A stretch of 64,000 nucleotides of DNA from Parachlamydiales bacterium (GCA_015661075.1 JACVQJ010000011.1:2257-66256); one strand, 5' to 3'; positions 57 to 36,359 are shown, counted from the stretch's first letter. Numbers and translations: made by a program. The notes: generated from the sequence alone by a model not told the origin.

Positions 57-404
57 ATGACGATTGTTTTTGTTCTGGTCGCAGATATTTTCTCTCTGAA
101 TACATTAGGTGCCCTATTCGGCTGCTTTCTGGTTAATCTGAGTCTTGTTTTTGTTCTTGCCTTTTTGCTTCGGCATTACCTGCATCATGATCCAAAACCC
201 TACGAGCAAACGACCTATCAGATTGCTTGGCTGAGCGCCTCTCTCTTGAATACTTTGCAATTCTTTCAAGTGTTTGCGCCTCAATCGCCCTCTTTGCTGG
301 CAGCATTCGCAACGATCGTTTTAGTGATCGCTCTCTCTTTTTCGCTTCATCGGCTGATTTACCGCTACAAACAGCAAAGGAATCACATTGCCCATGATGA
401 ATAA
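57..404 (+). CDS. hypothetical small membrane protein
   Basis: 115-aa ORF with several hydrophobic helices. It overlaps the next ORF by 17 nt. No recognisable family. Confidence 0.35.
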   Translation: MTIVFVLVADIFSLNTLGALFGCFLVNLSLVFVLAFLLRHYLHHDPKPYEQTTYQIAWLSASLLNTLQFFQVFAPQSPSLLAAFATIVLVIALSFSLHRLIYRYKQQRNHIAHDE

Positions 405-1644
405 TCGAACAATACCCGATTCTCATCAGAACTTTTGGGAGATCGCCAGCATCCAGGTCGGTTCGATGGGAGTTCCAGGCATGTTTTTTTTGTGGCAAGT
501 GGCCAAAGAATATGGTCCGGGCAACGCCATCGGAGCTAGCTTTATTGGCAATCTCATTCTTTGGGTCATTGGACTTGTCGTCATATCAATGAGTACTCAG
601 AATCGGACCGATGCTATTGCCAACTTTCGACAGCATTTAGGTAAAAGCAGCGCATTGTTCACAGCTATCATTATAATGCTATCATACCAGTTTTGGGCGA
701 GTATTCAGCTCCAATCATCTGTTGATGCCGTAGAAACTGTTCTCAAGATTCATTCGTATGTAATCAATGATAATACCGTTCGTATTGGCGCTGGGATCGG
801 CATATGGGGATCCTTGCTGGCCATCGGTGGTATTCGAATGGTTAAATGGCTGAACGTTATTTGTTTGCCACTGTTATTGAGCGCCCAGATATATCTGCTG
901 GTCACTTCTGATCATTCTCAATTAATCGACGATTTGTGGGGATTTTCACTTCCTGCAATCACCAGCGTTGTCTTGCTAAACATTCAGGTCACTATGTTTC
1001 TTCCAACTTTTTTTCGACATTCGCGTTCGCTAGCTGATTCGTATCTCGCTCTAACGCTCATCGCTATTTTAAATATATTTTTTCAGGTTTCAAGTATTTG
1101 GATAGGATTTGACAATCTTCTACCCAGCTTTCAAAATTCAAATGCTATTTTTTTATTTTTAATTATTGCTTTTATTGTTTTGCTTGCCGTTTGCAATCTT
1201 CTTATTAACATCTATTATGCATCTATTAGTTTGGAAGCGATGATGCCTAATTTTGATGGGTTTAAAGAATATGCTATCATTGGATTGAGCGGCACAGTGA
1301 CTTATCTATTTATACAAGTGCCGCCCCCAATGTTTTTTATGGAAAATTTAGCGACTGATTTCATCGCTATTCTTAGCGTCGCATTGTCAATTACGTATTT
1401 AGTACAAACAGTCGTCAAACGCCGTCCGATTTCTTTCGGCAAACTCGTTGGTAGTGCTTCATGGTTTATTGGTTGTGTCTCTGTCATCATTTTGAACTTT
1501 CAGAATGGTGAATCCAATGCAATGCATTTATATATTTCAATGGGCATCTGTGTATTATTTTTCCTAAGCACGCTGTTCCTAGAAGAAATGCTTTGGGCTC
1601 TGCGAAAATTGTATAAGAAAGAGGCAAAATCTAAGCAATTTTGA
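388..1644 (+). CDS. multi-pass integral membrane protein, putative permease
   Basis: 418-aa ORF, almost entirely hydrophobic helices (10 or more). The layout resembles a nucleobase/cation-symporter-type permease, but no diagnostic motif was recognised. Confidence 0.5.
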   Translation: MPMMNNRTIPDSHQNFWEIASIQVGSMGVPGMFFLWQVAKEYGPGNAIGASFIGNLILWVIGLVVISMSTQNRTDAIANFRQHLGKSSALFTAIIIMLSYQFWASIQLQSSVDAVETVLKIHSYVINDNTVRIGAGIGIWGSLLAIGGIRMVKWLNVICLPLLLSAQIYLLVTSDHSQLIDDLWGFSLPAITSVVLLNIQVTMFLPTFFRHSRSLADSYLALTLIAILNIFFQVSSIWIGFDNLLPSFQNSNAIFLFLIIAFIVLLAVCNLLINIYYASISLEAMMPNFDGFKEYAIIGLSGTVTYLFIQVPPPMFFMENLATDFIAILSVALSITYLVQTVVKRRPISFGKLVGSASWFIGCVSVIILNFQNGESNAMHLYISMGICVLFFLSTLFLEEMLWALRKLYKKEAKSKQF

Positions 1645-2854
1645 ACAAATCCGAGACGTGAAGAAATGAAAGGGTTTTTGGTTTGGCTGTATATACGTGT
1701 TGGATAAAAAACCGGAAAGGGTTTTTCAAAGAAAACCCGTTTTGCTCAGCTTGGTTTTTATAAAATTGAAATTCTTTATTATCCAAAGTGTTGATTAATT
1801 GATCTAATTCAGGATCTGGATATTGGCGATGGTCAGCCGCGGCGGCCAAAATAATATCGGAAACAGAATATAACTCCATCGAGCGCATCCATTCTTCTTC
1901 CGTCAGAGTCTCGTTGAGTATAATTCCCTCGAGGACGATTGATGGTTGGTCGTTTTCGATTTTAGATGCAGGCATTTCGATAAATTGATCAGTCTTGTCA
2001 TTTCCATTGTAAAGGCTTATCTCCCTCGCTATGCTATATTGGCCGCCTTCCTCCTTTTTGAGTACTTTCGCATGAATAATAACAGGAATTTTTTCTTCAA
2101 GCATTCGATTTAAAAGTGATTTATAAGCCCAAAACATCGGAATGCAAGCGCAATTGATATGCCGATTTGTAAACTCGTCTGAAACCATTTTTTGAGTCAG
2201 TAGATCATGATATACTTTCGCGGTTTCTCTCACAAAATGAACAGAAGCGAGTGAGAGCAATTTTCGCATTTTTTTGACTAGATTGGTTGTAAAGTTAGAT
2301 GACACATCGCTAATTTTTTTTAATTTGTTAGGACAGGTCACATTTCTAATCGTCACAGCAATGTTAGAATCTGCTGGGCTTACTTTTGACTCTGTCAGAA
2401 GAAATGATTGAATGAGAAATATCTCCTCAGCTGTCAACGAGACGATCAATTTTTCATTCCGAATAACTTCAGAAAGAGACGCCAGACTGAGCATCAGTGC
2501 TGCAATCTTTTTAGGTTCTAAATATTCTTTTAGAGCTACGAGAGCCTTTAAGATTCGTTGACGAAAGTGACACACATTGACTGTTTTTTTGGATGCAATG
2601 AGTGCAAGCATCACAGCACGGATCTGACAGGCATTTTCACCCACCAAACTATCGAATCGTTCGAGATCTCCCATTTCGAAATGATGGATTGCTTCCAAAG
2701 CTGCGTTCAATAGAAACTGGTACTCTTTCAATCCGGTCTGCAAAGCTTTTGCCCTTTTGGTGGAAGGATCATACGGAAGGAGCTGATGCAAGAACTCGAT
2801 TTTTGGCAGCTCAGTTTGAATCGGACTTTCTTCGGTTTTTAAAGAATTGTTCAT
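1631..2854 (-). CDS. hypothetical protein
   Basis: Uninterrupted 407-aa ORF in an AT-rich region. No recognisable domain. Confidence 0.5.
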   Translation of the reverse strand: MNNSLKTEESPIQTELPKIEFLHQLLPYDPSTKRAKALQTGLKEYQFLLNAALEAIHHFEMGDLERFDSLVGENACQIRAVMLALIASKKTVNVCHFRQRILKALVALKEYLEPKKIAALMLSLASLSEVIRNEKLIVSLTAEEIFLIQSFLLTESKVSPADSNIAVTIRNVTCPNKLKKISDVSSNFTTNLVKKMRKLLSLASVHFVRETAKVYHDLLTQKMVSDEFTNRHINCACIPMFWAYKSLLNRMLEEKIPVIIHAKVLKKEEGGQYSIAREISLYNGNDKTDQFIEMPASKIENDQPSIVLEGIILNETLTEEEWMRSMELYSVSDIILAAAADHRQYPDPELDQLINTLDNKEFQFYKNQAEQNGFSLKNPFRFFIQHVYTAKPKTLSFLHVSDLFKIA

Positions 2855-22835: not shown

Positions 22836-23772
22836 AGCGCATCATCAGGACAGGAAATAAATTGTGTTCATTGAGCGTGCGGGCGGCGTTTTTTTCGTAG
22901 GCCCTTTCATTGTAGTATTTGGCCTCTTCGCCTGCGCCGTAAATGCCGCCGAAGTACCAGCCGGCTTCAAAGCTGGTCGTGATGATGCCGGCCGCCAAAT
23001 AGTTGTGATGGAAAAATTCATAGGCCGCGGCGATGAAAAGGCCGTTGAGCAAAAAAGCGGTCAGGGCCGATTTTTTCTGCCCCAAATAGAGATAGCCGGC
23101 ACCAGGCATGAGAGCGTTCAGGGTCTGCGCCGTTCGGACGGATTTTTTTTCCGCTTCGTATGATTGGAGCATGGGATCGAGATAGGAGGGATGAGGCAGA
23201 TCCTGATTGATTTGTTGGATCTGATCCAGATTGCCCGAGGTGAGAGCTCGTGAGACGTTCATCTTTTCAGCCGTCTCGGGAAAGTCCTTCTGGATCATCT
23301 CAAAGACGCAATCCTCTTTTTCCGTACAGTTCATCTTGTGGTAGCATTCGTAGAGAATGAGCAGCAGATCGTGGTAGGCAGGAAAGGTCTTGTCGACATG
23401 GGCGAGCGCGCTCTTGTTCACCATGTCTACCGCATCGTCATAATGCTGGCCCAGATAATAGCAGAGCAAAATGTCGTACTGGATCTCGGTTTTACGCCCG
23501 GGATCTTTGTTTCCAATCAGGATTTCGGCGCGCTTATAGGTCGATACGGCGCGGTACAGATCCAGATCTTTGGCAAAGAAAAGGGCGATGCGCATTTCCC
23601 GGCCCCAGTCGGCCATCTCTTCGTCCTCGCTGAGCGGGGCAAAAGGGGAGTGGAGGCGTGAAAAATGTAGTTCTTGAATCGGGTCGTTGATCCGCGGCTC
23701 AATCTTGTCGGAAACACGGTAGCAGCTGGCCAAAAAGAGGCAAGCGATCAAAAAAGACTTCCATTGAATCAT
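22825..23772 (-). CDS. TPR-like lipoprotein with C-terminal membrane helices
   Basis: Lipobox LFLASC at the N-terminus. The central region is helical and repeat-like. The C-terminus GAGYLYLGQKKSALTAFLLNGLFIAAAYEFF..GGIYGAG is hydrophobic. Its start overlaps the sctC stop by 1 nt (TGATG). Confidence 0.55.
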   Translation of the reverse strand: MIQWKSFLIACLFLASCYRVSDKIEPRINDPIQELHFSRLHSPFAPLSEDEEMADWGREMRIALFFAKDLDLYRAVSTYKRAEILIGNKDPGRKTEIQYDILLCYYLGQHYDDAVDMVNKSALAHVDKTFPAYHDLLLILYECYHKMNCTEKEDCVFEMIQKDFPETAEKMNVSRALTSGNLDQIQQINQDLPHPSYLDPMLQSYEAEKKSVRTAQTLNALMPGAGYLYLGQKKSALTAFLLNGLFIAAAYEFFHHNYLAAGIITTSFEAGWYFGGIYGAGEEAKYYNERAYEKNAARTLNEHNLFPVLMMRYAF

Positions 23773-26700
23773 CAGTCATCTTCGGGCGATTTGATATATT
23801 CCATCGCTTCATCAAAATTATGCTCGAGAGCCGGAGTGCCCGCCTGATTGCGGAAGAATTCTTCCTGGTCGGAGCTGAGTTTCTTCATATCTTCCAGTGA
23901 ATTAATGATGGTGGGCCGCAGGAAGATGACGACATTGTGGCCGACGCTGCTGTCGTTGTTGGTCGAAAAAGCAGACCCGATGATGGGTATGCCGCCGAGG
24001 CACGGAATACCTGTTTTCACGCGTCGGTTTGAGTTGTTGACCATCCCGCTCAAAATCAAAAAGTTTTTGTTCGGAACATGAACCGTTGTATTCATTGTGG
24101 TTCGGCTCGTGGTGATCCCTTGTGCCTGACCCGTCCCGAAAGTGATCGTTGATCCGGTCGAATCTGTGGTCTGCTGCGAGTTGTCCAGGCTGATATCGAG
24201 CGTAATGATATCCGAGTTGCCGAGAACCGGGGTGATCGATAGGTTCATGCCGATATCGCGGTATTCGAGGTTGGCCGTCGTCAGGGTGTTCGATGTCTGG
24301 TTGGAGACGAACGATCCGGCAAACGGGACGTTAGACCCCGAGAAAATTGTCGCTGTCTTACTGTCCTGGGCGATGATCTTGGGCGTCATGACGATGGTCG
24401 TTTCAGTGTCTTGCTGCAGTGCGTTTAGAAGCGATCCGAGAGAAATAAAGGACTGGCCGTTGTGCTTGATGATGTCCCCAATCACGCCCAGATTGAAGTC
24501 GGGAGCGAAGGGAGTATCGGTCGGCACCGGCGTTCGGGTCGCTGTAATCGCCTGCAGATTGGATTGAAAACTACCCGCTGACGGATAAGGTGAAACCGCA
24601 GAGGGTTGGAAATTGTTAAAACTGCCGGACACCTTGTCTTTGTATTTGACCTTGCCGCCCCATTCGAGGCCGAACGTGAGCGCGTTGGTCAGGGAGGTGT
24701 CGATGACGAGCACTTCGATGAAGACCTGCTTGAGCGGAATATCAAGATTTTTGATCAGCTCCTTGAGGCGGGTCAGCGTTTCCTGATCGCCCGAGCAGAG
24801 CAGAGAGTTGGTCACTTCCAGCCATTGAATCGAATTGATCGAATTGAGCAGGCCCTGGTTCACGGGTGCATTCGTCAGGATCAGGTCTTTGGCGATCTGC
24901 CGCAGCGCTCCCTGGATTTCATCGCCTTTATGGAACTCGAGCTTGTAGACCAAAAAGCTGGTATTATCGATCGCCTGGATCGTCGGTTCGTTTTTTGCGC
25001 CTTCGGGGAGATTGGCGGGGATGTCGAAGTCTCTGAGTATCTGTTTGATGCGATCGAGTGATTTGGCGTCGCCCGTAAAGACCAGCGTTTGGGTTTTATC
25101 GTTGTATTTCATCGTCTGCAAGGTGATGAACAGGCCCGGATCGTTGAGTCCGCTCACCTGTAAATTCTCGCCGAAGTCGCGCAGCGTGTTTTCGAGATCG
25201 AGGCCTGTAAGAGATTGGGGTTTGTAGACGAAGAATTCGGTGGGGCCTGCACTCGTATCGATTTTGATTGGCGCAGGAGCTGCCAGGCTCGAGACGTCGA
25301 ATTTATCGACGAGCGCTTGCACTTTTGCGAGGGACTCTTCAGAGCCGGTAAACATCAAAGAGTTGGTCTCTTTGACAAATTTCAGACTGCTGAGCGTTGT
25401 TAAAAATTCCGTATCGGTCGAGCCGGTTTTTTTTAAATCCTGGGCGATCGTTTTTAGGGAAGCGGTGATTTGCGGACCGCTGGCGCTTTTTAGTTTGTAG
25501 AGCCAGAATGTCGTTTTGCCCACTTGGATGGGGGCTTGCGGGGCGGCAAAGTCGATTTCTTTGATGAGGAGCTGGATTTTAGAGATCGAATCCGGAGTGC
25601 CGGTAAATACAAACGTCTTGGTAGTATCGACGTATTTCATCGACGAGATGGTCGCGAGCAGATTTGGGTCGGACAGGTCGGCTTTTTGCAGACTCGATCC
25701 GATGTCCTTGAGTGATTTTTCGATTTTTGCCGGTGCGACGTGGAGCGGCTTGTACATGAAGAAGGTGCTGTTTTCTAGCCCCATCGTGCCGGGAGAGTCG
25801 TATTTGGCGATCATTGCTTTGGCTTCTTCGATGGCGGCGCTGTCACCGGTCAAAAGAAGCGAGTTGGTCTCCTTGACATAGCGCATATTTTCGATGACCT
25901 TGACGATCGAAGAGTCTTTCATGCCCGTCGCTAACATATTCTTGAGCATGTTCTCCAGATCTTCTTCGACTCTCTCGCCATCCGGATTTTGCAGCTTGTA
26001 GATGAAGTAGCCGGATTTGGATGTTTTTTGATCGGGAATATCGAATGACTGCACCAGATCTTTGATCCGGTCCAGGCTGCTTTGCGCGCCGGAAAACATA
26101 TACGAATGGGACGGCTCGATCCATTTCATGGAATGGATGGCGTCGATGAGATCGGAGTCGTTGGATTTGTTGAGATGATCCGCCAGCTGGCTGAGATAGC
26201 TCTCTGTACTTTCGCGGGAAGCATAGTTCAGTTTAGCCAGGTAAAAGCCTTTTTCCGAACCGGGCTTGGGGATCGATGTCGTCATGTCGATCGTTGCGAT
26301 CAGATCATCGATTTTTTTCAACGAAACAGGATCCCCCGTGAAGAGCAAAGTGTTCGTGTCTTTAACCCACTTGATGCTCGCAAGAGCGTGCAGCAGAGCC
26401 GGATCGACCAGGCTGGTCTTTAGGCTGTCAGAAGTTTCCTTCAAAGACCGGACAATCAGCTCGCCCTTGATATGCTTGGGTTTATAGGCTAAAAACTGGG
26501 TGCTCGGAGGAACCGATTGCTGGCCAACGCCGGCGTCGAATTGCGGAAGGAACTCCTGCAGTCTTTTGAGCGCTTCGTCCGTACCGACGAACATCATCGA
26601 GTTCGTCTCTTTGATATACTTAAGGGAATAGATCGCATTGACAATCCCCTCTTCGGGAAGGCCTGAATGTTCGAGGCTCTTGGCGAAGGATTTCAGGGAG

Positions 26701-28118
26701 GATTCCATCTGGTCGTAGCTGGCCGATTGCAGTTTATAGACGATGAAACCGGATTTGGGCGGCAGCTTTGGCCCCTTCGTAGATGGCGTATCGATGGTCG
26801 CGAGCAGATCCTTGATCTTGGAAAAATTGACTGAGTCGCCGGTGTAGAGAATTGTATGGGTGAGGGGATTGGCTTTTTGCGAGCGGATCGTAGCGATGAG
26901 CGTTTCGTCGGCGCTTTTCGACTTGCTGAGGTTGTCTGCGACCTCCTGCATGGATTTTTGGATTTCTTCCATGCTGCGGTTAACGGGCTTGTAGACGAAA
27001 AATGAAGCTTTGCCCTCATTCGGGAGTCCGCCGATATCGAGGGAAGTGATGAATTCCCTGATTTTGACGTTCGATTCGGGAGAGCCGACGAACATCAGCG
27101 AATTGGTTTCCTGGATCCATTTGGCGCTATCGATCGTTTCGATAAGATCGCTTTCCATGACCCCGTTTTCTTGGAGGTTGGTCGAGATGTCCTTTAAAGA
27201 TTTGAGAATTTCGTGGCCGGATCGATGTTCGAGTTTGACGACAAAAATATTTTCCGACCGCATCTTCCGCTCATTTAATACCGATCTTTTCGGCGGCGTA
27301 TCGAGGCTGGTCAGTACGGCGACGGCTTTTTCATTGAGTTCGGGCGTCGATACGATGAAAATCGCGTTGGCCAACGATTGGGGGACTAAAATAAACGGGT
27401 TGCCCTGCGCAATCGGGTTCATGATCTGGGCAGCCAGCTCGATCAGATATTCGGGTTTGTTAAATTTCGTTTCAAAATTTTTGATTTCGAGCGATGTGTG
27501 GGGCGAGTCGAGGTTTTCGATCAGGGCGGCGATTTTTTCGACGACCATCGTCGCATCAGTCAGAATCAATTGGCGCGTATCGCGCGAAACTTCGATGAGG
27601 GCCTCATCCGAGATCATTGGGCGGACGATCGCCGCCACGGAATCGACATTCGCGTTCTTTAATCGAAATACGCGCGTGACGATCGGCGTATTCGCTGCCG
27701 CTTTTTCGTCTCCGAAAACGAGTGTGGCGGGCTGGCGGACGGTGCCGCTCTTGTGGATGACGAGGTTATTTCCCTGCTCGAGCAGCATGAGTCCGTGGAT
27801 GCGCAGCATCTGGATTAGGGTCGCCATCACATTTTCCGACGTAATCGGCGCATCTGATACGACGGTTACGGTGAAAGGTAGATCGCTTTCGGTAAAAATA
27901 AAATTCGTGTTGCAGATTTTGCTCGCAAATTTGATGTATTCAACGATCGAGACGGTGTTGTAATTGATCGTGTAGCCGTCTTTCGCGCTCAATTCAGCCG
28001 CATGAGGTTTTGCCGCGTCATCGGCAAAAAGCCTCAATGGGGATAGTGAAACGGTTCCAATGATGATCAATGGAATCAAGAAGGATTTAGACAACCAATT
28101 TGTGTGTTCGTTCATCAT
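23772..28118 (-). CDS. sctC: T3SS outer-membrane secretin SctC (CdsC) with an expanded N-domain array
   Basis: Signal peptide, then an N0-like domain, then many ring-building-motif repeats. The secretin C-domain follows: VFIEVLVIDTS..., IVMTPKIIAQDS, GIPCLGGIPIIGSAF, VIFLRPTII. Total length 1448 aa. Confidence 0.9.
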   Translation of the reverse strand: MMNEHTNWLSKSFLIPLIIIGTVSLSPLRLFADDAAKPHAAELSAKDGYTINYNTVSIVEYIKFASKICNTNFIFTESDLPFTVTVVSDAPITSENVMATLIQMLRIHGLMLLEQGNNLVIHKSGTVRQPATLVFGDEKAAANTPIVTRVFRLKNANVDSVAAIVRPMISDEALIEVSRDTRQLILTDATMVVEKIAALIENLDSPHTSLEIKNFETKFNKPEYLIELAAQIMNPIAQGNPFILVPQSLANAIFIVSTPELNEKAVAVLTSLDTPPKRSVLNERKMRSENIFVVKLEHRSGHEILKSLKDISTNLQENGVMESDLIETIDSAKWIQETNSLMFVGSPESNVKIREFITSLDIGGLPNEGKASFFVYKPVNRSMEEIQKSMQEVADNLSKSKSADETLIATIRSQKANPLTHTILYTGDSVNFSKIKDLLATIDTPSTKGPKLPPKSGFIVYKLQSASYDQMESSLKSFAKSLEHSGLPEEGIVNAIYSLKYIKETNSMMFVGTDEALKRLQEFLPQFDAGVGQQSVPPSTQFLAYKPKHIKGELIVRSLKETSDSLKTSLVDPALLHALASIKWVKDTNTLLFTGDPVSLKKIDDLIATIDMTTSIPKPGSEKGFYLAKLNYASRESTESYLSQLADHLNKSNDSDLIDAIHSMKWIEPSHSYMFSGAQSSLDRIKDLVQSFDIPDQKTSKSGYFIYKLQNPDGERVEEDLENMLKNMLATGMKDSSIVKVIENMRYVKETNSLLLTGDSAAIEEAKAMIAKYDSPGTMGLENSTFFMYKPLHVAPAKIEKSLKDIGSSLQKADLSDPNLLATISSMKYVDTTKTFVFTGTPDSISKIQLLIKEIDFAAPQAPIQVGKTTFWLYKLKSASGPQITASLKTIAQDLKKTGSTDTEFLTTLSSLKFVKETNSLMFTGSEESLAKVQALVDKFDVSSLAAPAPIKIDTSAGPTEFFVYKPQSLTGLDLENTLRDFGENLQVSGLNDPGLFITLQTMKYNDKTQTLVFTGDAKSLDRIKQILRDFDIPANLPEGAKNEPTIQAIDNTSFLVYKLEFHKGDEIQGALRQIAKDLILTNAPVNQGLLNSINSIQWLEVTNSLLCSGDQETLTRLKELIKNLDIPLKQVFIEVLVIDTSLTNALTFGLEWGGKVKYKDKVSGSFNNFQPSAVSPYPSAGSFQSNLQAITATRTPVPTDTPFAPDFNLGVIGDIIKHNGQSFISLGSLLNALQQDTETTIVMTPKIIAQDSKTATIFSGSNVPFAGSFVSNQTSNTLTTANLEYRDIGMNLSITPVLGNSDIITLDISLDNSQQTTDSTGSTITFGTGQAQGITTSRTTMNTTVHVPNKNFLILSGMVNNSNRRVKTGIPCLGGIPIIGSAFSTNNDSSVGHNVVIFLRPTIINSLEDMKKLSSDQEEFFRNQAGTPALEHNFDEAMEYIKSPEDD

Positions 28119-28427: not shown

Positions 28428-29552
28428 TCAGGCGGTTTCGATCACACGGATGCCGAGCGCTTCACCGAGATAGACGAGTTCCCCGCGGCCGATTTTTTGA
28501 CCGTTCACAGTTAATGAGACTTCCTGATCGGGATGGATCGGCAGTTCTAAAAAATTGCCTGGGGACAGTTTCATCAATTGATCCACGGACATGCGCAATC
28601 GCGCCAGTTCGACAGTCACGAGCAGAGGAAGTTCCTTGACGGCCATCGCGCGCCCTTCTTCTGCAGATGCAGTTTCTTCGGTATTTTTTTGCGGCGCAGC
28701 GTCGCGCTTTTCCATAGTTTCCTCATAGAATAAGGCATAATCGAGCAACTTGATCTTGTTTTCTTTCACGCTGATGTGAAACAGCGGCGTTGATCCCAGC
28801 GATAGAGTCGCAGCCCCAACGCGAAGGCGAGGATCGTAGCCGCCCCTTTCGAGCAGGATGAAGTCGCCCTTTTCCAGCTTGTTCCACTCTTTGGTCGTTA
28901 ATCGGCAATTCCCGGTACAGATGCTGAGGGGCACTTCGATGCTCGGGGCGAGCGGCGACAAAGAAAACAGCTCCCGCATCGATGAAAAGTGGCGCTGCCA
29001 GGAGGTCAGCAAGTGGGCAGGCAAAACGAGGCGGCCCCAGCAAGAGCCATGTTCAAAGGACAGTTTAATATCGATGCAATAGGCATTCTCGATGCTCTCT
29101 TCGCTCTCTTCGTTGATTTTCAATGAAAAAGTAGTGATTGGCTCGATGGTTTGCAGGGCAGCTAAGGCCTCAAGAGCCAAAAAGCGGTAAAATCCCTCTT
29201 GCAGGATTTCCGAGTTGATGGTGCGGGTGCGGCTTTTGCCGTTCATCAGCCAGGAGGTCATGCGGGCGACATCTTCGCGCCCCATCATCCAGATGGCATT
29301 ACCGGATAGCGGGGAGATGGAGACGCTCAGACTCATGACATCCGAACCCAGACTCTCTTTAATTTTTTTCTCTTCGCGCCAGGTTCCTTCCCCCGTTTCA
29401 ATCGATAACGGTGCGCCGAATTGCGCTTTGATCGCGGAAGAGATGCGGCTGATATCCAATCTTGGTGCATTTCCATAGAGAGGAATTTTATCGAGCCGCC
29501 GCAAAGCGTCGTCGACTTTGCGCGCCCAAGCCAATGGAAGCCCATTCGTCAT
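28428..29552 (-). CDS. sctQ: T3SS cytoplasmic-ring / sorting platform protein SctQ (CdsQ)
   Basis: C-terminal SpoA/FliN-type domain LPLLVTVELARLRMSVDQLMKLSPGNFLELPIHPDQEVSLTVNGQKIGRGELVYLGEALGIRVIE. There is a 4-nt overlap with the upstream sctP-like gene. Confidence 0.85.
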   Translation of the reverse strand: MTNGLPLAWARKVDDALRRLDKIPLYGNAPRLDISRISSAIKAQFGAPLSIETGEGTWREEKKIKESLGSDVMSLSVSISPLSGNAIWMMGREDVARMTSWLMNGKSRTRTINSEILQEGFYRFLALEALAALQTIEPITTFSLKINEESEESIENAYCIDIKLSFEHGSCWGRLVLPAHLLTSWQRHFSSMRELFSLSPLAPSIEVPLSICTGNCRLTTKEWNKLEKGDFILLERGGYDPRLRVGAATLSLGSTPLFHISVKENKIKLLDYALFYEETMEKRDAAPQKNTEETASAEEGRAMAVKELPLLVTVELARLRMSVDQLMKLSPGNFLELPIHPDQEVSLTVNGQKIGRGELVYLGEALGIRVIETA

Positions 29553-30793
29553 TTTTCCCTCTCATTCATATCTTCTTTGCCGCCGCCCTCTTTTTTTCGC
29601 CGGATCAACGGACGTCCAGGCGATAGCTCTGTTTCAAGCCGGCCGATGCGAAATTTGATGCGATGATCTTCATAAGCAGCCGTAAAGGCCGACGTCAAAC
29701 TACTGATATTTTGATTGAATGCCTTTACTGCTTCCGGCGTTCCTGTGAGGCGGATGTTAAAAGAATCGGGAGCGCTGGAATATTTTGCAATGGTAATTGT
29801 TGTGTTGTAGAAGACGGAATTTTGAAACTTTGGGGAATTCAGCACTACTTCTGTTAAGGAAACGCCCGTTTTGGGCATCGACATGAAAACGACCGTACCT
29901 ACCATTTGATAAAATAGCGCGGCTGTTTGGGGGGTCAGGAACGGGGATGCCGATGTCTGGGCGATCTGCGCGACCTGTTGCGCCGCGGGCGGCAGCGGAT
30001 CCGGCGGACTGACGGGTGTTTGAGATTCAAAAGAAGCTTGTTTCTTGTGGCTATCTTTTTCATCCCCTTTATCTTTATGAGCTTCAGTAAAACCGCGCGA
30101 TGGGGCTGCTATTTTTTCCTTTTCTTGCCAGGCCGTTTTTTCTTTTTGGCTGATATTCGGCGCCGGGCGCTCTTCTTTTTTCACAGGAACGGTCGGCGTT
30201 TCTCTTTCTACCCAAAAGGCCTTTATCGGTTTTTCCCCTTTCATTAAGGGCGGAGGCGCGATGGGTAAGGAGGGCTGCGGGAGACCTTTTTTCTCCGCTG
30301 TTTTTTTTCCAGAAGATTCTTTTGACTGGATCGGCGACGCCCATGGGGTTCGGGGTTTTTCCTGACCAAAATTCTCGTGCGGCGAAGGGGCTTTGATCTC
30401 AACTTTTGGTTTCTTAAGGGTGGATGGACCGAAGATGCCCCCAAATTCTTTAGCTGTTTTTTTTTCAGGGACAGCTGATTGCTGCTTTGCCTGTTGATGG
30501 GTCAATGGCTGCGGCTGTTCGTTGAATTGAGTCGGGGGGATGGGCTGGTCAGGTAGATCGTTATTTTCCCAGAACTCTTCTGACTCGGGAAGGTTTTCGT
30601 CAATCTCGCCCTCTTCTTCCGGGGGGGTGGCGTATGGGCGTTTTTGCTGTTGGTCGAGTTCTACCTCGCTCACCTTTTCCACTTCCTCGACCGGGCGCAT
30701 GGCTTTTTGAAATTTCCCCGCATCAGCGCCTTGTGTTCCGCGCGCTCCACGCACAGGTTCGGGGGAAGTAGGACCGCCAACAGGGTTGGTCAT
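29549..30793 (-). CDS. sctP: proline-rich T3SS protein in the CdsP/SctP (needle-length regulator) position
   Basis: Its position directly upstream of sctQ matches chlamydial CT671. The N-terminal two thirds are low-complexity P/E/K-rich. The C-terminal globular part (VSLTEVVLNSPKF...FNIRLTGTPEAVKAF) is reminiscent of a T3S4/FliK-like domain. Confidence 0.55.
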   Translation of the reverse strand: MTNPVGGPTSPEPVRGARGTQGADAGKFQKAMRPVEEVEKVSEVELDQQQKRPYATPPEEEGEIDENLPESEEFWENNDLPDQPIPPTQFNEQPQPLTHQQAKQQSAVPEKKTAKEFGGIFGPSTLKKPKVEIKAPSPHENFGQEKPRTPWASPIQSKESSGKKTAEKKGLPQPSLPIAPPPLMKGEKPIKAFWVERETPTVPVKKEERPAPNISQKEKTAWQEKEKIAAPSRGFTEAHKDKGDEKDSHKKQASFESQTPVSPPDPLPPAAQQVAQIAQTSASPFLTPQTAALFYQMVGTVVFMSMPKTGVSLTEVVLNSPKFQNSVFYNTTITIAKYSSAPDSFNIRLTGTPEAVKAFNQNISSLTSAFTAAYEDHRIKFRIGRLETELSPGRPLIRRKKEGGGKEDMNEREK

Positions 30794-30902
30794 ATGTTGT
30801 CTCCGTAGATCAGGCTTATTTTGACTTTAGGGCGAATTCATAAACTTATCAAGAGGGCAGATGTGGATTTTATTCTTGGGCGCGAGAAAACCCAATCCTT
30901 TA

Positions 30903-31053
30903 GGGCTGATCGTTACCCACAAGTTCCGTTTCCAGAGGGAGGCGAGGCAAAGCCAGATGGAAGCGTAAGCGGTCCGAATGGTGAAGCCCATAGCTGAAAG
31001 CAGCAAAGCCGCAGCCCCCTATGGAAACGGAACTTGTGGGTAACGATCAGCCT
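30903..31053. repeat. MITE-like nested palindrome, copy B (151 bp), flanked by TTA
   Basis: 31-bp perfect inverted repeat GGCTGATCGTTACCCACAAGTTCCGTTTCCA at 30904-30934 against 31022-31052. TTA at 30900-30902 and 31054-31056; the wider direct repeat is CCTTTAGGG. Confidence 0.65.
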
Positions 31054-31094
31054 TTAGGGGCGGCGGGCGGCTCTAAAAACGTACAAAGTCGAGA

Positions 31095-31409
31095 TTAAGT
31101 GCTTTTTTGAATGAGCTTGGGTCGATAGATTCCCTTGTCGACTATTTCCAGCAGTCGTAGGGCTGCATGACTCGGAACTCGTTCTCCCGATTCCCAGGAT
31201 TGAACGGTTTTAATGCTGACATTCAAAACTTTTGCAAAAACGCCCTGAGAATACGGCCCCTTTTTTCGGATATTTTTAATGTGGTTGGCTGAGTATGAAA
31301 TAGGGGGTTCTGGGATTTCAATAATCTCGGATTGAAGCGTAATCTTACCTTGTTTATGAGCAAGTATTTCTTCGAGGCCTCCTTTTAATTCTTCAAAAAA
31401 TCTGCTCAT
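31095..31409 (-). CDS. XRE-type HTH antitoxin (YiaG/NadS-like)
   Basis: 104 aa. The C-terminal HTH is SQGVFAKVLNVSIKTVQSWESGERVPSHAALRLLEIV. Its ATG overlaps the inferred original toxin stop (ATGA). Confidence 0.75.
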   Translation of the reverse strand: MSRFFEELKGGLEEILAHKQGKITLQSEIIEIPEPPISYSANHIKNIRKKGPYSQGVFAKVLNVSIKTVQSWESGERVPSHAALRLLEIVDKGIYRPKLIQKST

Positions 31410-31864
31410 TTTTTCCCCTTAATTGCATTGGTTATCTTTTTCAAGACAGCTTTTTCTTCCGCGCTTAGGGATCGTTCAAGAATAAAGTTTAGTGTTGTCG
31501 AGGAGAAAAACGGTTTAGATTTTGAGAATTTTTCCGCAGCTGAGAGTCTTGTTTCTCTCTGTTGAACGATCCCTTAAATTTTCTTGTTCGTTTTTTTGAA
31601 AAACCTGAATCAGGTAAATAGTTTGCCTAAATACATAGTAAAAATAACAAACCCGAAAGCCTCCGCTCTTTCCCCTCGATGCAGATTTTAATCTTATTTT
31701 TCTAACGCCGCCAGTTCCTGTCAGGACAGTCCCCTTTTCTGGATTTTCAGCCAGCTCTCTTTTAAGGTCGTTGTAATCGTCCTGCAAAAGACTATGCCGA
31801 TTCAACAAAGCGGCAATTTTTTTGAAAACGCCGTGGTTTCGGTTATTTGAATCTTTGTATTCAT
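31406..31864 (-). pseudogene. RelE/ParE-superfamily toxin, inactivated by a homopolymer frameshift and a MITE insertion
   Basis: MNTKIQITETTAFSKK (frame a) continues as LLQDDYNDLKRELAENPEKGTVLTGTGGVRKIRLKSASRGKSGGFRVCYFYY..VFQKNEQENL (frame b, after the A7 run at 31817-31823). A 106-bp insertion then separates it from SAEEKAVLKKITNAIKGKK*. Confidence 0.65.
31468..31573. repeat. MITE-like element, copy C (106 bp), inserted in the toxin gene and flanked by TTA
   Basis: 12-bp perfect terminal inverted repeat GGGATCGTTCAA (31468-31479) against TTGAACGATCCC (31562-31573). TTA at 31465-31467 and 31574-31576. Removing it restores the toxin reading frame. Confidence 0.7.
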
Positions 31865-31965
31865 TGTACTACAGTGTAGGATATCTTTCTGCTATTTGAA
31901 AAGTAAAATCTCAAGCCTTTGTATATCAGTTGTGTTTGCGCTAACGAGAGCGTGTTTGATCCCTT

Positions 31966-32478
31966 TCATTCTTTATCCCGTTTTTCAGCGTCCCGTTTGC
32001 GGAGTAGATGCGTCGATGAACCTTGTTCGTCGTGCTGTTCCGCTTCCTTTTGCTCAGTCCAGTAGTGAACCTCTTTTTTCCATTCCGCTTTGTGCATTTC
32101 AAGTTTTTCGAGATCTTTTTTGCGCTGAAAGAGATCTTCCGTTGCCTGATCAACGAGTTTTTGGGCCAAATCGACCTTCGCTTTCTGGTCGACGACCTTT
32201 TTTTGCTTTTCCCGCAGCTTTTCATCCACGATCTTTAAATAGATCTTCATCTGCTGAATCTTGTCTGTCGTCGTTCCTTTGTCCAACGCATCGCGCAGCT
32301 GCTGGAGTTTGTCCGTCTTGTGCTGCAGGACGGAGTCGCGCTCCTGGGTCACTTCGTAGAGTTTTTCGTACGCTTTTTCCAAAATCACTTTTTTTTCCTC
32401 GAGCACTTTGACCGCCTGATCGAAGCGGTTTTTCTTGATCTGCATCAATTGCTCGAGCGGATAATTCAGCGGATCCAT
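31966..32478 (-). CDS. sctO: T3SS stalk protein SctO (CdsO, CT670-like coiled coil)
   Basis: 170-aa all-coiled-coil protein. The N-terminus YPLEQLMQIKKNRFDQAVKVLEEKK and the DKGTTTDKIQQMKIYLK segment match my recollection of chlamydial CT670. Its position lies between sctN and sctP. Confidence 0.7.
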   Translation of the reverse strand: MDPLNYPLEQLMQIKKNRFDQAVKVLEEKKVILEKAYEKLYEVTQERDSVLQHKTDKLQQLRDALDKGTTTDKIQQMKIYLKIVDEKLREKQKKVVDQKAKVDLAQKLVDQATEDLFQRKKDLEKLEMHKAEWKKEVHYWTEQKEAEQHDEQGSSTHLLRKRDAEKRDKE

Positions 32479-32598
32479 AGATCTCCAAAAAAATAGACTG
32501 TAGCAAGGTACATGAAAAATGAAAAATTAAAATGAGCTAAATTTATCCCAAACCAACAAAATCAGTGGGGAGACAGTGTATCAGCACCTTAGAAATAG

Positions 32599-32628
32599 TT
32601 GATTGTTAGTCCCAATATTGGGTATAAT
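32599..32628 (+). promoter_or_regulatory. sigma70-like promoter with an overlapping palindromic operator for the plus-strand TA cassette
   Basis: TTGATT (32599-32604), 18 nt, then TATAAT (32623-32628). The palindrome CCCAATATTGGG (32611-32622) abuts the -10 element. The ATG at 32638 is only 10 nt downstream. Confidence 0.4.
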
Positions 32629-32637
32629 TAGAAATGG

Positions 32638-33045
32638 ATGAGCGAACGTATGGAAGCGAAAAAAGAAATTCTCTGGATTGGCTCCTCTAAGCCAGACCTC
32701 CAATCTTTAGTGGGTGAGGCTCAAGATGAGATAGGATATGCCTTATTTCAGGCCCAAATGGGCGGGAAAAGTGAAAAAGCAAAACCGTTTAAAGGATTCG
32801 GTAGCGCAAACGTTTTGGAGATCGTTGTGTTTAGCATAGGTGGAACGTATAGAGGCGTTTACACGGTGCGCTTTAAGGGAGTAATTGCTGTGTTGCACGT
32901 ATTTCATAAAAAATCCACGCATGGAATAAAAACAAGCAAACAAGATATAGAGTTAATTAAAAGTCGATTGAAGCTCTCTGAGGAAGATTACAATGTTTGG
33001 ATGCTAAAAGAGGAAAAGAAAAATGAAAAAGAAAAAAGCCAATAA
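32638..33045 (+). CDS. Gp49/HigB-like (DUF891-type) RelE-superfamily toxin
   Basis: ILWIGSSKPDLQSL...PFKGFGSANVLEIVV...YRGVYTVRFKGVIAVLHVFHKKSTHGIKTSKQDIELIKSRL fits the phage Gp49-like toxin pattern. Confidence 0.75.
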   Translation: MSERMEAKKEILWIGSSKPDLQSLVGEAQDEIGYALFQAQMGGKSEKAKPFKGFGSANVLEIVVFSIGGTYRGVYTVRFKGVIAVLHVFHKKSTHGIKTSKQDIELIKSRLKLSEEDYNVWMLKEEKKNEKEKSQ

Positions 33046-33421
33046 AGAAGGAAGTGCAGAAACTCGCCCAAAAACAGGCGTCAAGAGCGTTTATGAGGAG
33101 CTGGGCAATAAAGATTTTAAAGAAATGGAAACAAAAGCCATTTTGGTAATGGAGTTAAGCAAGACAATCAAGAAACAAAAGCTGACTCAAACCGCTGTCG
33201 CTGAAGTCCTGGGAATTACTCAGCCCAAACTTTCTGCGTTATTAAGAGGTCAATTTAGAGGGTATTCAGTTGAGCGTTTGATTCATTTTCTTGTGGAGCT
33301 AGGCAAAGATGTGGATATTGTTGTGAAAACAAAGCCGCGCAATCGCAAAGGCCGAGTTAGCGTTTATCCTTGTAATGATAAAAGCGAGCCAAATCCACCA
33401 ATGGCCGCTCTGGGCAAATAA
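33023..33421 (+). CDS. XRE-family HTH antitoxin
   Basis: LTQTAVAEVLGITQPKLSALLRGQFRGYSVERLIHFLVELG is the typical partner of Gp49-like toxins. It overlaps the toxin 3' end. The true start may be an internal Met. Confidence 0.75.
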   Translation: MKKKKANKEGSAETRPKTGVKSVYEELGNKDFKEMETKAILVMELSKTIKKQKLTQTAVAEVLGITQPKLSALLRGQFRGYSVERLIHFLVELGKDVDIVVKTKPRNRKGRVSVYPCNDKSEPNPPMAALGK

Positions 33422-33437
33422 ACAATGTAAACTCCCA

Positions 33438-34754
33438 CTAAACAAACAGGGCTTTGAGCATGCGCAGCGTATCTTCGAAGCTTGACTTTTCGTCGATTTG
33501 CTGCTTGAGGAAGCGATTGACTTTATCGATGTATTTGAGGGCGAAGTCGGCGTTTTTGTCCGAGCCAGGCTTATATTCGCCAATGCGGATGAGCAGCTCG
33601 TTTTTCTTGTAGTTCGCCAGCACTTCGCGCACCTTGCCGATCAGATCGAGATGCGGCCGGTCCACGATCTGCGGCAAGACGCGGCTGATCGAGGCCAGAA
33701 CGTCGATGGCGGGATAGTGGTATTGGCGCGCCAGATCCGCTGACAGGATAATATGGCCGTCCAGAATGGAACGGACTTCGTCGGCAATCGGCTCGTTGAG
33801 ATCGTCGCCGGCGACCAGGATCGTATAAAAGGCCGTGATGGAGCCCTTTTCGCTGTTGCCGGAACGCTCCAGCAGGCGCGGCAATATCGCGAAAACAGAC
33901 GGCGTATAGCCGGCGCGGGCGGGCGGCTCGCCGGCAGCTAAGCCGATTTCTCTGAGCGCTCTTGCAAAGCGCGTGATGGAGTCCATCATCAATATGACTG
34001 ATTTGCCCTGCGCGCGAAAATATTCGGCAATCGCTGTTCCGACATAAGCGGCGTTGATGCGCATCTGGGCGGCCTGATCGGAGGTCGAGATGATGATGAC
34101 CGAGCGCTTCATCCCTTCCGTCCCGAGGTCGTTGATCAAAAATTCGCGCACTTCTCTACCGCGCTCGCCGATGAGCGAGATCACATTGATGTCGGCTTGC
34201 GCGTTGCGGGCGATCATGCCCATCAGAGTCGATTTGCCGACGCCGGCCGCGGAGAAAATGCCGACGCGCTGGCCTTTGCCGCACGTGAGGACGCCATCGA
34301 TGCTCCGCACGCCGACCGAAATGGGCTTTTGGATCAGCTGGCGCTTCAGGGGATCGGGCGGGGTATTGATGACGGGAAAGCTCTCTTCGAGAACGAGCGG
34401 TCCTTTGGTGTCTTCGTCGAGCGGCTGGCCCATGCCGTTCAAAATGCGGCCGAGCAGATTGGGCCCCACTTTGATGTGCAGGGGCATGCGCATGGGGATC
34501 ACTTCCGAGGACGGGCCAATGCCTTTCATGTCTCCCACGGGGGACAGAAGTACTTCATCTTTTGTGAATCCGACGACCTCGGCAATCAATGGTTCGCCGT
34601 CCCGCTTGATGAGGCAGATCTCGCCCATTTTCACTTGCGGAACGACGGCGCGGATCAACATGCCGATCACTTCGGTGATGCGTCCGTGAACGGTGGTGAG
34701 TTCCACATCCTCCAGATGACTCATCAGGTTATCGAAGGAAGGGCCTTGTTCCAT
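33438..34754 (-). CDS. sctN: T3SS ATPase SctN (CdsN)
   Basis: Walker A GIFSAAGVGKSTL, Walker B VILMMDSITRFA, and the F1/T3SS ATPase signature throughout. Confidence 0.95.
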   Translation of the reverse strand: MEQGPSFDNLMSHLEDVELTTVHGRITEVIGMLIRAVVPQVKMGEICLIKRDGEPLIAEVVGFTKDEVLLSPVGDMKGIGPSSEVIPMRMPLHIKVGPNLLGRILNGMGQPLDEDTKGPLVLEESFPVINTPPDPLKRQLIQKPISVGVRSIDGVLTCGKGQRVGIFSAAGVGKSTLMGMIARNAQADINVISLIGERGREVREFLINDLGTEGMKRSVIIISTSDQAAQMRINAAYVGTAIAEYFRAQGKSVILMMDSITRFARALREIGLAAGEPPARAGYTPSVFAILPRLLERSGNSEKGSITAFYTILVAGDDLNEPIADEVRSILDGHIILSADLARQYHYPAIDVLASISRVLPQIVDRPHLDLIGKVREVLANYKKNELLIRIGEYKPGSDKNADFALKYIDKVNRFLKQQIDEKSSFEDTLRMLKALFV

Positions 34755-34761
34755 TCATTTT

Positions 34762-35394
34762 TTATAGTTGGGTGTTCAGGATTTGTTTGAGTGAATCGAC
34801 GACTTTACCGAGCAAGGACGAAGAATATTCAATCTCTTGCTGGGCCTGCGACAGCTTGACCTGAACCAGCAAAAAATCGCCGGCATTCATCTGAATGCCC
34901 TTTTTGGAAATATTCTCGATCTGTTGCTGGGCCGCTGCCAGCTGGTTTTCGCCGTCGGTCACGTAACCGAGAAAGCGCTCGATCGGCTTCGCTCCGGATT
35001 GCGATGGCATCGGCGGCGTCTCCACGCCCAGTTTCGCATTCGCTGCGCGCAGGTGGGTCGTGGCGTCGGACAGCTTGTTGCGCAGCAGATGCTGCTGCGA
35101 GCGCCTGAACTGCAGGTCTTTCGTGCCCAGCTGATTCCTCACATTGGCCAGGCTGTCTTGCGATATGCCGATCTGGGAGATCAGGCTATCGAGAGACGGT
35201 CCCGCCGTCTGCACGGCGTATTGGGCTCCCGGGATCGCCGAGGGAGCCTGCGCCTGAAAACCCTTGGGCGGAGCTTGCTGGGCGGCCGTTGAAAAGCTCT
35301 GGAAATCCGCCCCCGGTGCCTGGGGCGTGGTCGTCCCTGGCTTGATGGGCTGATTGCCAAAGATCGGATCAGACTTGTCAGACGGTATCGTCAT
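34762..35394 (-). CDS. CT668-position protein with a needle/rod-like C-terminal domain (candidate inner rod SctI)
   Basis: The N-terminus is P/Q/A-rich and likely disordered. The C-terminus NAGDFLLVQVKLSQAQQEIEYSSSLLGKVVDSLKQIL parallels NPGQFILVQFQMSQVTQVGESISNMIGQVNSVINNAV of the adjacent needle protein. Confidence 0.5.
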   Translation of the reverse strand: MTIPSDKSDPIFGNQPIKPGTTTPQAPGADFQSFSTAAQQAPPKGFQAQAPSAIPGAQYAVQTAGPSLDSLISQIGISQDSLANVRNQLGTKDLQFRRSQQHLLRNKLSDATTHLRAANAKLGVETPPMPSQSGAKPIERFLGYVTDGENQLAAAQQQIENISKKGIQMNAGDFLLVQVKLSQAQQEIEYSSSLLGKVVDSLKQILNTQL

Positions 35395-35418: not shown

Positions 35419-35850
35419 TTACTTCGCTTTTTTTTGGCCCTGGACAGGCGTCGGCGTCTTTTTCAAAAACTTCTCGGCGAAGTCGATCGCGGTATTGGAG
35501 AGGTTTTTGAGCATGGGGTCATGCGACTTCAGCGTTTGATGCAGGATTTTTTCGCCTTTGTCCAATGACGCCGGGTTCAAGCTCATGCAAATGCCGAGCA
35601 GTGTCTTGGCCATTTCATTTTTTGGCTCTTTGGCCAGCACATCTTCGAACGCTTTGCAGGCTTGCTTGAGCTCGAGTTTATGCAAATGCAAATAGCCCAT
35701 GCCGACCGTGGGTAAAGTGTTGTCTGGATTGAGCATTGCAGCTGCTTTGAACAGCTTGATCGCAGAATCTTCGTCCGCCTGGTTGACGGCAATGAATCCG
35801 CATTCGAGAAAGAGAATCCAGTCCTCTTTGTAATCTTTCCAATTTGCCAT
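35419..35850 (-). CDS. TPR-type T3SS chaperone (CdsG/YscG-like position)
   Basis: 143 aa with TPR-like helical pairs (AIKLFKAAAMLNPDN, ACKAFEDVLAKEPKN). It lies immediately downstream of the needle gene, as in chlamydial CT667. Confidence 0.55.
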   Translation of the reverse strand: MANWKDYKEDWILFLECGFIAVNQADEDSAIKLFKAAAMLNPDNTLPTVGMGYLHLHKLELKQACKAFEDVLAKEPKNEMAKTLLGICMSLNPASLDKGEKILHQTLKSHDPMLKNLSNTAIDFAEKFLKKTPTPVQGQKKAK

Positions 35851-35867: not shown

Positions 35868-36113
35868 TTATCGTGATTGTTGGTTTTTTACTGCGTTGTT
35901 GATCACCGAATTGACCTGCCCGATCATGTTCGAGATCGATTCGCCGACCTGCGTCACCTGGCTCATCTGAAATTGCACGAGGATGAACTGGCCCGGATTG
36001 GCCGAACTCATCTTGCTCGCGAGCGAGCGCACCTGTTGTAACAGCTGATCTTGCAACTTTTTGTAATTAGAGATGAGCGAATTAAACGATAATGAAGTGT
36101 CGTTTGTTTTCAT
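35868..36113 (-). CDS. sctF: T3SS needle filament protein SctF (CdsF)
   Basis: 81-aa helix-turn-helix protein with an NPG turn and a conserved C-terminal helix. Its position matches chlamydial CT666. Confidence 0.7.
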   Translation of the reverse strand: MKTNDTSLSFNSLISNYKKLQDQLLQQVRSLASKMSSANPGQFILVQFQMSQVTQVGESISNMIGQVNSVINNAVKNQQSR

Positions 36114-36122
36114 TGATAGCCC

Positions 36123-36359
36123 CTATTTCGCTGCTTTTTTGATGGCTTTTTGAAGAGCGGTGTAGCCGTGCAGTAGAATTCCCAACTGATCGAAATCCTT
36201 ATCGCTCGCACCAACTCTTAGCGCTTGTTTAATTTCCTGGATCCTGTTTTCCGCTTTCAACAGCAGCTCTTTGCTGCGGCCGGGGCGCTCCTTCAATTCG
36301 ACTTCGAGATCGAACATGAATTTTCCAGGGCCTTTCTTGCCTTTTTCTAGTCCGTACAT
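36123..36359 (-). CDS. small helical protein in the CdsE/YscE (needle co-chaperone) position
   Basis: 78 aa, helical, located between sctD and sctF as for CT665. The assignment rests on position only. Confidence 0.45.
   Translation of the reverse strand: MYGLEKGKKGPGKFMFDLEVELKERPGRSKELLLKAENRIQEIKQALRVGASDKDFDQLGILLHGYTALQKAIKKAAK

Follow-up and report, generated by a model that had tools for sequence, protein, structure and literature searches.

An intact and a decayed toxin-antitoxin cassette interrupt the type III secretion gene string of a Parachlamydiales bacterium

Introduction

How did two toxin-antitoxin (TA) cassettes come to lie among the apparatus genes of a chlamydial type III secretion system (T3SS), and do they serve it in any way? 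The locus in question belongs to a 64,000-nt stretch of DNA from an uncultured environmental Parachlamydiales bacterium (GCA_015661075.1 JACVQJ010000011.1:2257-66256), referred to here as the window. Its gene content and order (cdsE, cdsF, cdsG, a 210-aa gene, sctN, sctO, sctP and sctQ) are those of the chlamydial cdsE-to-sctQ string, which the annotation of C. trachomatis treats as a single operon (PMC12095286, Supplementary Table 2). Genes and order are alike in the two, whereas the window has about 1 kb of inserted DNA at the sctN-sctO junction and again at the sctO-sctP junction. The contiguity of sctN, sctO and sctP is broken by gaps of 959 bp (sctN-sctO) and 1172 bp (sctO-sctP).

A preliminary description of the window had placed one TA pair at each of these two junctions, and both pairs do interrupt the apparatus string. 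Cassette 1 is a plus-strand pair that lies antisense between sctN and sctO, with a 16-nt convergent gap to sctN; its coordinates and gene families proved to be essentially as first described. Cassette 2 is a minus-strand pair between sctO and sctP. Pfam profile matches assign both pairs to TA families. In our judgement, the likely explanation of the locus is that two unrelated selfish TA modules, one of them live and the other decaying, were inserted independently and recently at tolerant sites.

Insertion scars and synteny

We compared the window with 83 loci of relatives, comprising 80 genome loci around sctO and three short contigs of the closest relatives. Neither TA was found around sctO in any of them (0/83), hence the TA-interrupted arrangement is not ancestral. 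A rough neighbor-joining tree of SctO, SctQ and SctN, distorted by missing data and limited by the shortness of the markers, served only to pick the nearest neighbor. This nearest relative, L081, has SctN and SctO proteins that are 93% and 82% identical to those of the window, a sctN-sctO gap of 17-20 bp and a sctO-sctP gap of 92 bp. In L083, where SctN is 94% identical to that of the window, sctN and sctO abut. Both of these closest relatives are represented by short contigs.

Alignment with the uninterrupted junctions revealed a scar at each site (Table 1). The 10 nt that follow the sctN stop codon in the window (TGGGAGTTTA) match the L081 spacer and mark the right-hand boundary of insertion 1. 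At the second site, the 3' end of the window sctO departs from that of L081 just before the stop codon, and the last ~3 codons and the stop are, by this alignment, now supplied by inserted DNA. Because the old sctO end and the old spacer persist directly upstream of sctP, insertion 2 appears to have entered the last sctO codons. Both cassettes are, as judged from these alignments, derived insertions.

In the course of events that we propose, the first module would have inserted itself antisense to the operon, 10 nt past the sctN stop codon (insertion 1, ~32487-33427). A HigB-2-like toxin with its helix-turn-helix (HTH) antitoxin, co-directional with the operon, would have entered the end of sctO (insertion 2, ~30855-31975). 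Later, the loss of one nucleotide from an A-run, together with the arrival of a small mobile palindrome, would have killed the cassette 2 toxin and orphaned its antitoxin.

Cassette 1

Both genes of cassette 1 are intact. The toxin, which has a probable start at Met5 (32650), is 66-83% identical to homologues of ~124 aa, of which 83 were found, and retains every invariant column. A PDB sequence search with this toxin gave no match with either the single sequence or the profile. The antitoxin can be aligned from end to end with its counterparts in loci L085 and L088, with a gap of at most one residue, and it matches PDB 2o38 (E 1e-18). Toxin and antitoxin genes overlap by 23 nt (33023-33045), compared with 4 nt in the homologues, and the ancestral stop codon of the toxin was probably lost in an A-rich run. 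The toxin C-terminus (KEEKKNEKEKSQ) is ~7-11 residues longer than usual.

The toxin gene is preceded by a predicted sigma-70-like promoter whose -10 element is covered by a palindrome, a putative antitoxin operator. The homologous TA loci L085-L088, which lie on unrelated contigs, are preceded by the same conserved -35, palindrome (CCCCAATATGGGG) and -10. Because these elements accompany homologous modules, cassette 1 seems to have brought its own promoter and presumed operator. The overall picture is that of a self-contained, intact and apparently functional TA module.

The present ribosome-binding site of sctO, GGAG, is found in the AT-rich spacer that separates this gene from the promoter of cassette 1. 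We also considered that cassette 1 might have replaced an older cargo and rejected this reading; the AT-rich 120-160 nt upstream of sctO have no similarity to the relatives.

Cassette 2

The preliminary description had reported cassette 2 as a RelE-like toxin with an XRE antitoxin. Its location and families stand, but the intact toxin reading frame does not. The toxin is a HigB-2-like pseudogene that carries both a frameshift and an insertion, and a three-frame translation of 31400-31870 recovers it in three pieces. The first lesion, a -1 frameshift, falls in a run of seven A residues (A7; read as T on the plus strand, 31817-31823). The second is a 108-nt inverted-repeat element (31467-31574) inserted after codon 97. 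When one A is added and the element is removed, the result is a 116-aa protein that can be aligned with intact homologues of equal length without a single gap; the best match among them (P0204) is 86% identical. The PF06296 match improves accordingly from E 5e-7 for the fragment to E 6e-9 for the reconstruction, and the family profile matches HigB-2 chains in PDB at about E 1e-22 over residues 17-114.

The insertion of the element is documented by an empty site: the TA DNA of L089, the locus of P0204, runs parallel to that of the window but lacks window positions 31468-31572. This insertion alone takes away the last 19 residues of the toxin. L084, an independent assembly of the same strain, has the identical frameshift.

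The cassette 2 antitoxin is intact. It can be aligned in full (104/104 residues, 81% identity, no gaps) with the antitoxin that accompanies an intact toxin in L090, a metagenome-assembled genome (MAG) of Chlamydiales. It is now an orphan; since the toxin is dead, cassette 2 cannot work as a TA system.

Distribution of the TA families

We identified 80 metagenomic loci with a homologue of the cassette 1 toxin. An antitoxin partner accompanies it in 64 of them, and in none of the 80 is SctN, SctO, SctP, SctQ or SctC encoded within 4 kb of the toxin homologue. Homologous Gp49 and HTH_37 pairs were found among housekeeping genes, adjoining NAD synthase in L085 and lying between Glycos_transf_N (PF04413) and adh_short dehydrogenase genes in L088, a Chlamydiota MAG. 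The HigB-2-like pair of the cassette 2 type adjoins proC in the Chlamydiales MAGs L090 and L091, and in L089 it is found in a DnaB/HTH_17/ResIII region of mobile appearance. The families of both cassettes thus appear, from the composition of their neighborhoods, to be mobile and without linkage to T3SS genes. Base composition also points to mobility and a foreign origin: the cassettes are more AT-rich than their flanks, as had been claimed (GC content 0.395 and 0.396, versus 0.576 for sctN, 0.47 for sctO and 0.508 for sctP). This low GC is no outlier for the window, however, being at the 9th-17th percentile of its 800-bp windows (mean 0.473, standard deviation 0.055).

The sctN-sctO junction

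The preliminary description had taken adjacency of sctN and sctO to be conserved in chlamydiae. We examined this in the 67 related loci that have both genes, 35 of them with SctO at least 60% identical to that of the window and 32 with SctO below 60%. Adjacency holds in the distant families, where the gap is at most 110 bp in 29/32 loci (including MAGs labelled Rhabdochlamydiaceae or Parachlamydiaceae). It fails in the clade of the window itself, where other cargo, most of it antisense, takes up 150-2700 bp of this junction in 24/35 loci. The junction is accordingly split in 24 of the 35 close relatives, as against 2-3 of the 32 distant ones. In most close relatives the cargo amounts to 0.8-2.7 kb; junctions of this kind occur in L003-L017, L021, L027, L029, L031, L033, L044, L046 and L048 (for example, L004:4413-5485 and L009:4763-5721).

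The cargo is heterogeneous. Its commonest form is a conserved antisense pair of ~120 aa and ~180 aa, Inc-like candidate effectors within the apparatus operon. Inc proteins are characterized by a bilobed hydrophobic domain of about 40-60 residues (PMC3048545). In 13 loci of relatives we found one or two antisense small proteins, each with a single hydrophobic block of 40-50 aa, which makes them Inc-like; we regard them as candidate effectors on the basis of this block. A match of the antisense cargo to IncD is weak (E 0.008) and falls below the cut-off.

Other junctions hold different genes. Another MAG, L003, has a HipA-like kinase in split form (151-1667, minus strand in locus orientation), one open reading frame (ORF) corresponding to the HipA N-terminal domain and the next to HipA_C; because this kinase occupies the junction, L003 appears to carry a different TA-like system at the same place. 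The cargo comprises a Schlafen/AlbA_2 and HATPase_c_4 protein in L011, an NYN-domain protein in L027 and a 23S-rRNA-IVP four-helix protein in L041. Two further observations concern larger proteins: an antisense fragment similar to polymorphic membrane proteins (Pmp-like), judged by eye from GGAI-type motifs, at L082:1-495, and a sense-strand ORF of 756 aa at the junction of L046 (3720-5990). The junction may therefore accommodate surface or secreted proteins as well. Finally, the gap of a further MAG, L007 (5064-5980), consists of tandem-repeat DNA with a 256-aa repetitive ORF (unit ...PLFPRFAAYPFSLPLYLPFSVLKFMP.YTPSPLPN...).

Because separation of sctN and sctO is common in the clade and accompanies such heterogeneous cargo, it is evidently tolerated and is not specific to TA modules. 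A stronger reading of the same data is that the junction is a dedicated plasticity spot, which exchanges candidate effectors (Inc-like, Pmp-like) and TA or defense-like modules (HigBA-like, HipA-like, NYN, Schlafen/AlbA_2), and that the position itself is selected. Antisense cargo, cassette 1 included, would then be coupled to expression of the apparatus, for example through transcription convergent with that of sctN. We consider selection of the position unlikely. Under the explanation that we prefer, the same junction is a tolerant, clade-specific plasticity spot at which a selfish module came to rest.

The sctO-sctP junction

In most other members of the clade (L001-L050 examined) sctO and sctP overlap at an ATGA. 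The sub-lineage of the window differs in this respect: L081 (1790-1830), L082 and L083 have a sctO-sctP spacer of 64-150 bp, with a conserved TTGAnA-17-TAnAnT motif over the sctO stop codon. In the window, a promoter scan called the promoter-like motif TTGATA-17-TAAAGT at 30852-30824, over the old sctO stop codon and upstream of sctP. The hexamers occupy an equal position in the window, L081, L082 and L083, with a variable spacer between them, against a background of 1.4%. Only promoter and terminator sites backed by such conservation were used in this work. The conservation suggests a lineage-specific internal promoter for sctP-sctQ, which probably pre-dates insertion 2; the latter would have landed immediately upstream of its -35. 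The proposal that the insertion left sctP in need of a new promoter is weakened accordingly. The promoter scan called none upstream of sctO.

Both insertions may have been tolerated because most members of the clade already have a split sctN and sctO and because the sctP motif is older than insertion 2. In the lineage of the window, sctO and sctP-sctQ would then be independent of co-transcription with sctN.

Weighing of the explanations

The evidence favors selfish insertion, one of the possibilities that the preliminary description had raised. The other, a stabilizing or regulatory role at the locus, found no support, as the TA families occur elsewhere in unrelated housekeeping or mobile contexts.

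Several points weigh against our preferred explanation. Neither cassette has a transposase, an integrase or a clear target-site duplication at its flanks. Counts of predicted promoters and terminators are not above those in shuffled controls, and the ordering of the relatives rests on the rough tree described above. The frameshift in the cassette 2 toxin could be a sequencing error or phase variation, since it is located in a homopolymer run. Finally, cassette 1 is fully intact and has a conserved putative operator, and is therefore under selection at least at the level of the module; it may also benefit the host.

In one rival reading, cassette 1, and formerly also cassette 2, would act as an addiction module that penalizes deletions of the T3SS genes around it, much as TA systems protect plasmids and adjacent islands, and would be kept for the sake of the injectisome cluster. 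The T3SS is considered essential in obligate intracellular chlamydiae, and an addiction module would therefore be unneeded. The nearest relatives retain the cluster without any TA, the cassette 1 toxin family has no T3SS association in the 80 other loci, and cassette 2 was allowed to decay. These observations make stabilization of the locus quite improbable to us, despite the intactness of cassette 1 with its conserved putative autoregulatory promoter and despite two precedents: chlamydial HigBA modules can be functional (PMC10880633), and TA systems are reported to help maintain the Shigella pINV plasmid that bears a T3SS island (PMC5629016).

Regulatory co-option, by which transcription of cassette 1 against read-through from sctN, or DNA binding by the orphan antitoxin of cassette 2, would modulate the expression of sctO and sctP-sctQ and link injectisome assembly to stress, is in our view highly improbable. 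The geometry of the locus would permit it: the convergent gap is 16 nt, no convincing terminator was found between sctN and cassette 1, and sctP is directly preceded by an intact HTH gene that is now an orphan. Waddlia TA transcripts are likewise reported to respond to iron starvation (PMC10880633). Against this, an inverted-repeat search found no operator-like copy of the cassette 1 palindrome near sctO or sctP, the arrangement is unique to the window genome among the 83 relatives, and the promoter-like motif of sctP is older than the insertion. Relatives with wholly different cargo at the sctN-sctO junction imply that nothing specific to TA modules is required.

An artefact of assembly or binning, in which cassettes from another organism or locus were mis-joined at repeats, is hardly credible: a contig end and a length variant of L084 do fall in the cassette 2 inverted-repeat element and cassette GC is below that of the flanks, but this independent 32-kb contig (L084, ENA) is 100% identical to the window over 42478-31562, a span that takes in sctN, sctO, the whole of cassette 1 and the greater part of the toxin of cassette 2, the scars are precise, in that the old sctO stop codon and the ancestral spacer survive, and the same TA families are present in other Chlamydiota MAGs.

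Comparison with known systems

Cassette 1 resembles HigBA-type modules (Gp49/PF05973 with HTH_37/XRE) in being toxin-first, with an overlapping HTH antitoxin and a toxin of the RelE/ParE superfamily, and in having a palindrome over the -10 of its own predicted promoter. Functional HigBA modules are known in Waddlia, where they were attributed to lateral transfer (PMC10880633); the HigBA1 and HigBA2 modules of Waddlia chondrophila are cited here solely as a chlamydial precedent for a toxin-first HigBA. Like the HigBA-type modules of chlamydiae, cassette 1 is patchy in its distribution and apparently laterally acquired. It differs from these modules in its position, antisense inside a T3SS operon and 10-16 nt from the sctN stop codon, as well as in the longer toxin C-terminus and gene overlap described above; its toxicity is predicted from sequence.

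Cassette 2 is similar to HigB-2/HigA-2 of Vibrio cholerae (PDB 5JA8, 5JAA, 8A0X), with the toxin upstream and the HTH in the C-terminal part of the antitoxin. In contrast to that system, its toxin is a pseudogene and only the antitoxin can still be made. The TA systems of Shigella pINV (PMC5629016) share with the cassettes a physical linkage to a T3SS-encoding region, but they maintain a plasmid and are located outside the secretion operons, whereas the modules of the window, one of which is dead, are chromosomal and placed among the apparatus genes.

Our literature search found no description of a TA module between injectisome apparatus genes. The position of a TA module inside an injectisome string is a curiosity, and the module represents neither a new kind of system nor a new mechanism; the TA families, their architecture, mobility and decay are all textbook. 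The locus is of interest because it shows that the T3SS apparatus string can be broken into even among obligate intracellular bacteria, whose T3SS genes are considered highly syntenic. Foreign or accessory genes repeatedly enter the sctN-sctO junction of one environmental clade, in the present case a live TA module. There are two consequences for annotation: operon predictions from C. trachomatis are not valid for all Chlamydiota, and the RelE-like toxin call at cassette 2 refers to a pseudogene. The most interesting by-product of the analysis is the clade-specific hot spot at the sctN-sctO junction with its antisense Inc-like genes.

Features of the locus and small inverted-repeat elements

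The features of the T3SS locus are listed in Table 1. The sctP product gave no match in the Pfam scan. An Rfam scan of 30500-33700 returned nothing meaningful, the best hit being Ocean-VII at 16 bits versus a gathering score of 53.5.

Table 1. Features of the T3SS locus, in order of decreasing position in the window
Feature	Position	Strand	Evidence and remarks
cdsD	36376-38253	-	
cdsE	36123-36359	-	
cdsF	35868-36113	-	
cdsG	35419-35850	-	
210-aa gene, CT668-like	34762-35394	-	
sctN (cdsN), T3SS ATPase, intact	33438-34754	-	PF00006 E 2.8e-88; PF18269 T3SS_ATPase_C
Ancestral sctN-sctO spacer remnant TGGGAGTTTA	33428-33437	-	Alignment with uninterrupted junctions of L081 and L083
Cassette 1 antitoxin, HTH_37/XRE type, 132 aa, intact	33023-33421	+	PF13744 E 1.8e-22
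Cassette 1 toxin, Gp49/HigB-like, RelE/ParE superfamily, intact	32638-33045	+	PF05973 E 2.9e-19, above curated cut-off
Palindrome TCCCAATATTGGG over -10, putative antitoxin operator	within 32606-32627		Inverted-repeat search
Cassette 1 predicted promoter, sigma-70-like, TTGATT-18-TATAAT	32599-32628	+	Promoter scan, 10/12 matches
AT-rich spacer between sctO start and cassette 1 promoter	32479-32598		GC of 32479-32637 = 0.33
sctO (cdsO)	31966-32478	-	PF16789 YscO-like E 2.1e-46, profile positions 3-161/161, domain intact
Cassette 2 toxin, HigB-2-like PF06296 pseudogene	31410-31864	-	RelE match at 31515-31808/31864
MITE-like palindromic element in toxin gene	31467-31574		108 nt; 13-nt perfect terminal inverted repeats (AGGGATCGTTCAA)
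Cassette 2 antitoxin, HTH_3, HigA2/MqsA-like, 104 aa, intact	31095-31409	-	PF01381 E 5.7e-6
Second inverted-repeat element	30897-31059		163 nt; 52-nt arms, 85% complementary; flanked by TTTAG direct repeat
Old sctO 3' end (TCT TGA) and sctO-sctP spacer	30800-30857	-	Alignment with L081, L082 and L083
sctP (cdsP-like), 414 aa	29549-30793	-	tblastn matches in most sampled relatives
sctQ (cdsQ)	28428-29552	-	PF01052 FliMN_C E 1.9e-20; 4-nt overlap with sctP
sctC	23772-28118	-	

The preliminary description had also reported two copies of a miniature inverted-repeat transposable element (MITE) in this region. We found instead two different elements, one inside the cassette 2 toxin gene and the other between the cassette 2 antitoxin and sctP. 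The 108-nt element has its terminal inverted repeats at 31467-31479 and 31562-31574 and no ORF, and the arms of the 163-nt element are at 30897-30948 and 31008-31059. Their shared termini are limited to a GATCGTT motif. Like MITEs, both are short (108-167 nt and 163 nt, respectively) and non-coding, have terminal inverted repeats and possibly short flanking direct repeats (TA and TTTAG, respectively). No cognate transposase was identified and each has one copy within 64 kb; we term both MITE-like. No further full copy of either was found in the window, where the 30-mer arm of the 163-nt element is unique. When the window and all fetched loci were searched for more copies, nothing emerged beyond a partial core match in the window (63358-63408) and a match of 23 nt in L036.

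The 108-nt element has a longer form in L084. At L084:10918-10976, corresponding to window position 31561/31562, 59 extra nt complete a long hairpin (~167-nt form), and the contig ends inside the element. These extra nucleotides reflect either a length polymorphism in the population or collapse of the palindrome by the assembler.

A third inverted repeat, at 63269-63452, has 40-nt arms that are 85% complementary and unrelated to the arms of the 163-nt element. Over its central ~50 nt it shares 85% identity with the core of that element (30897-31059), and the two may represent a family of palindromic elements built around a common core.

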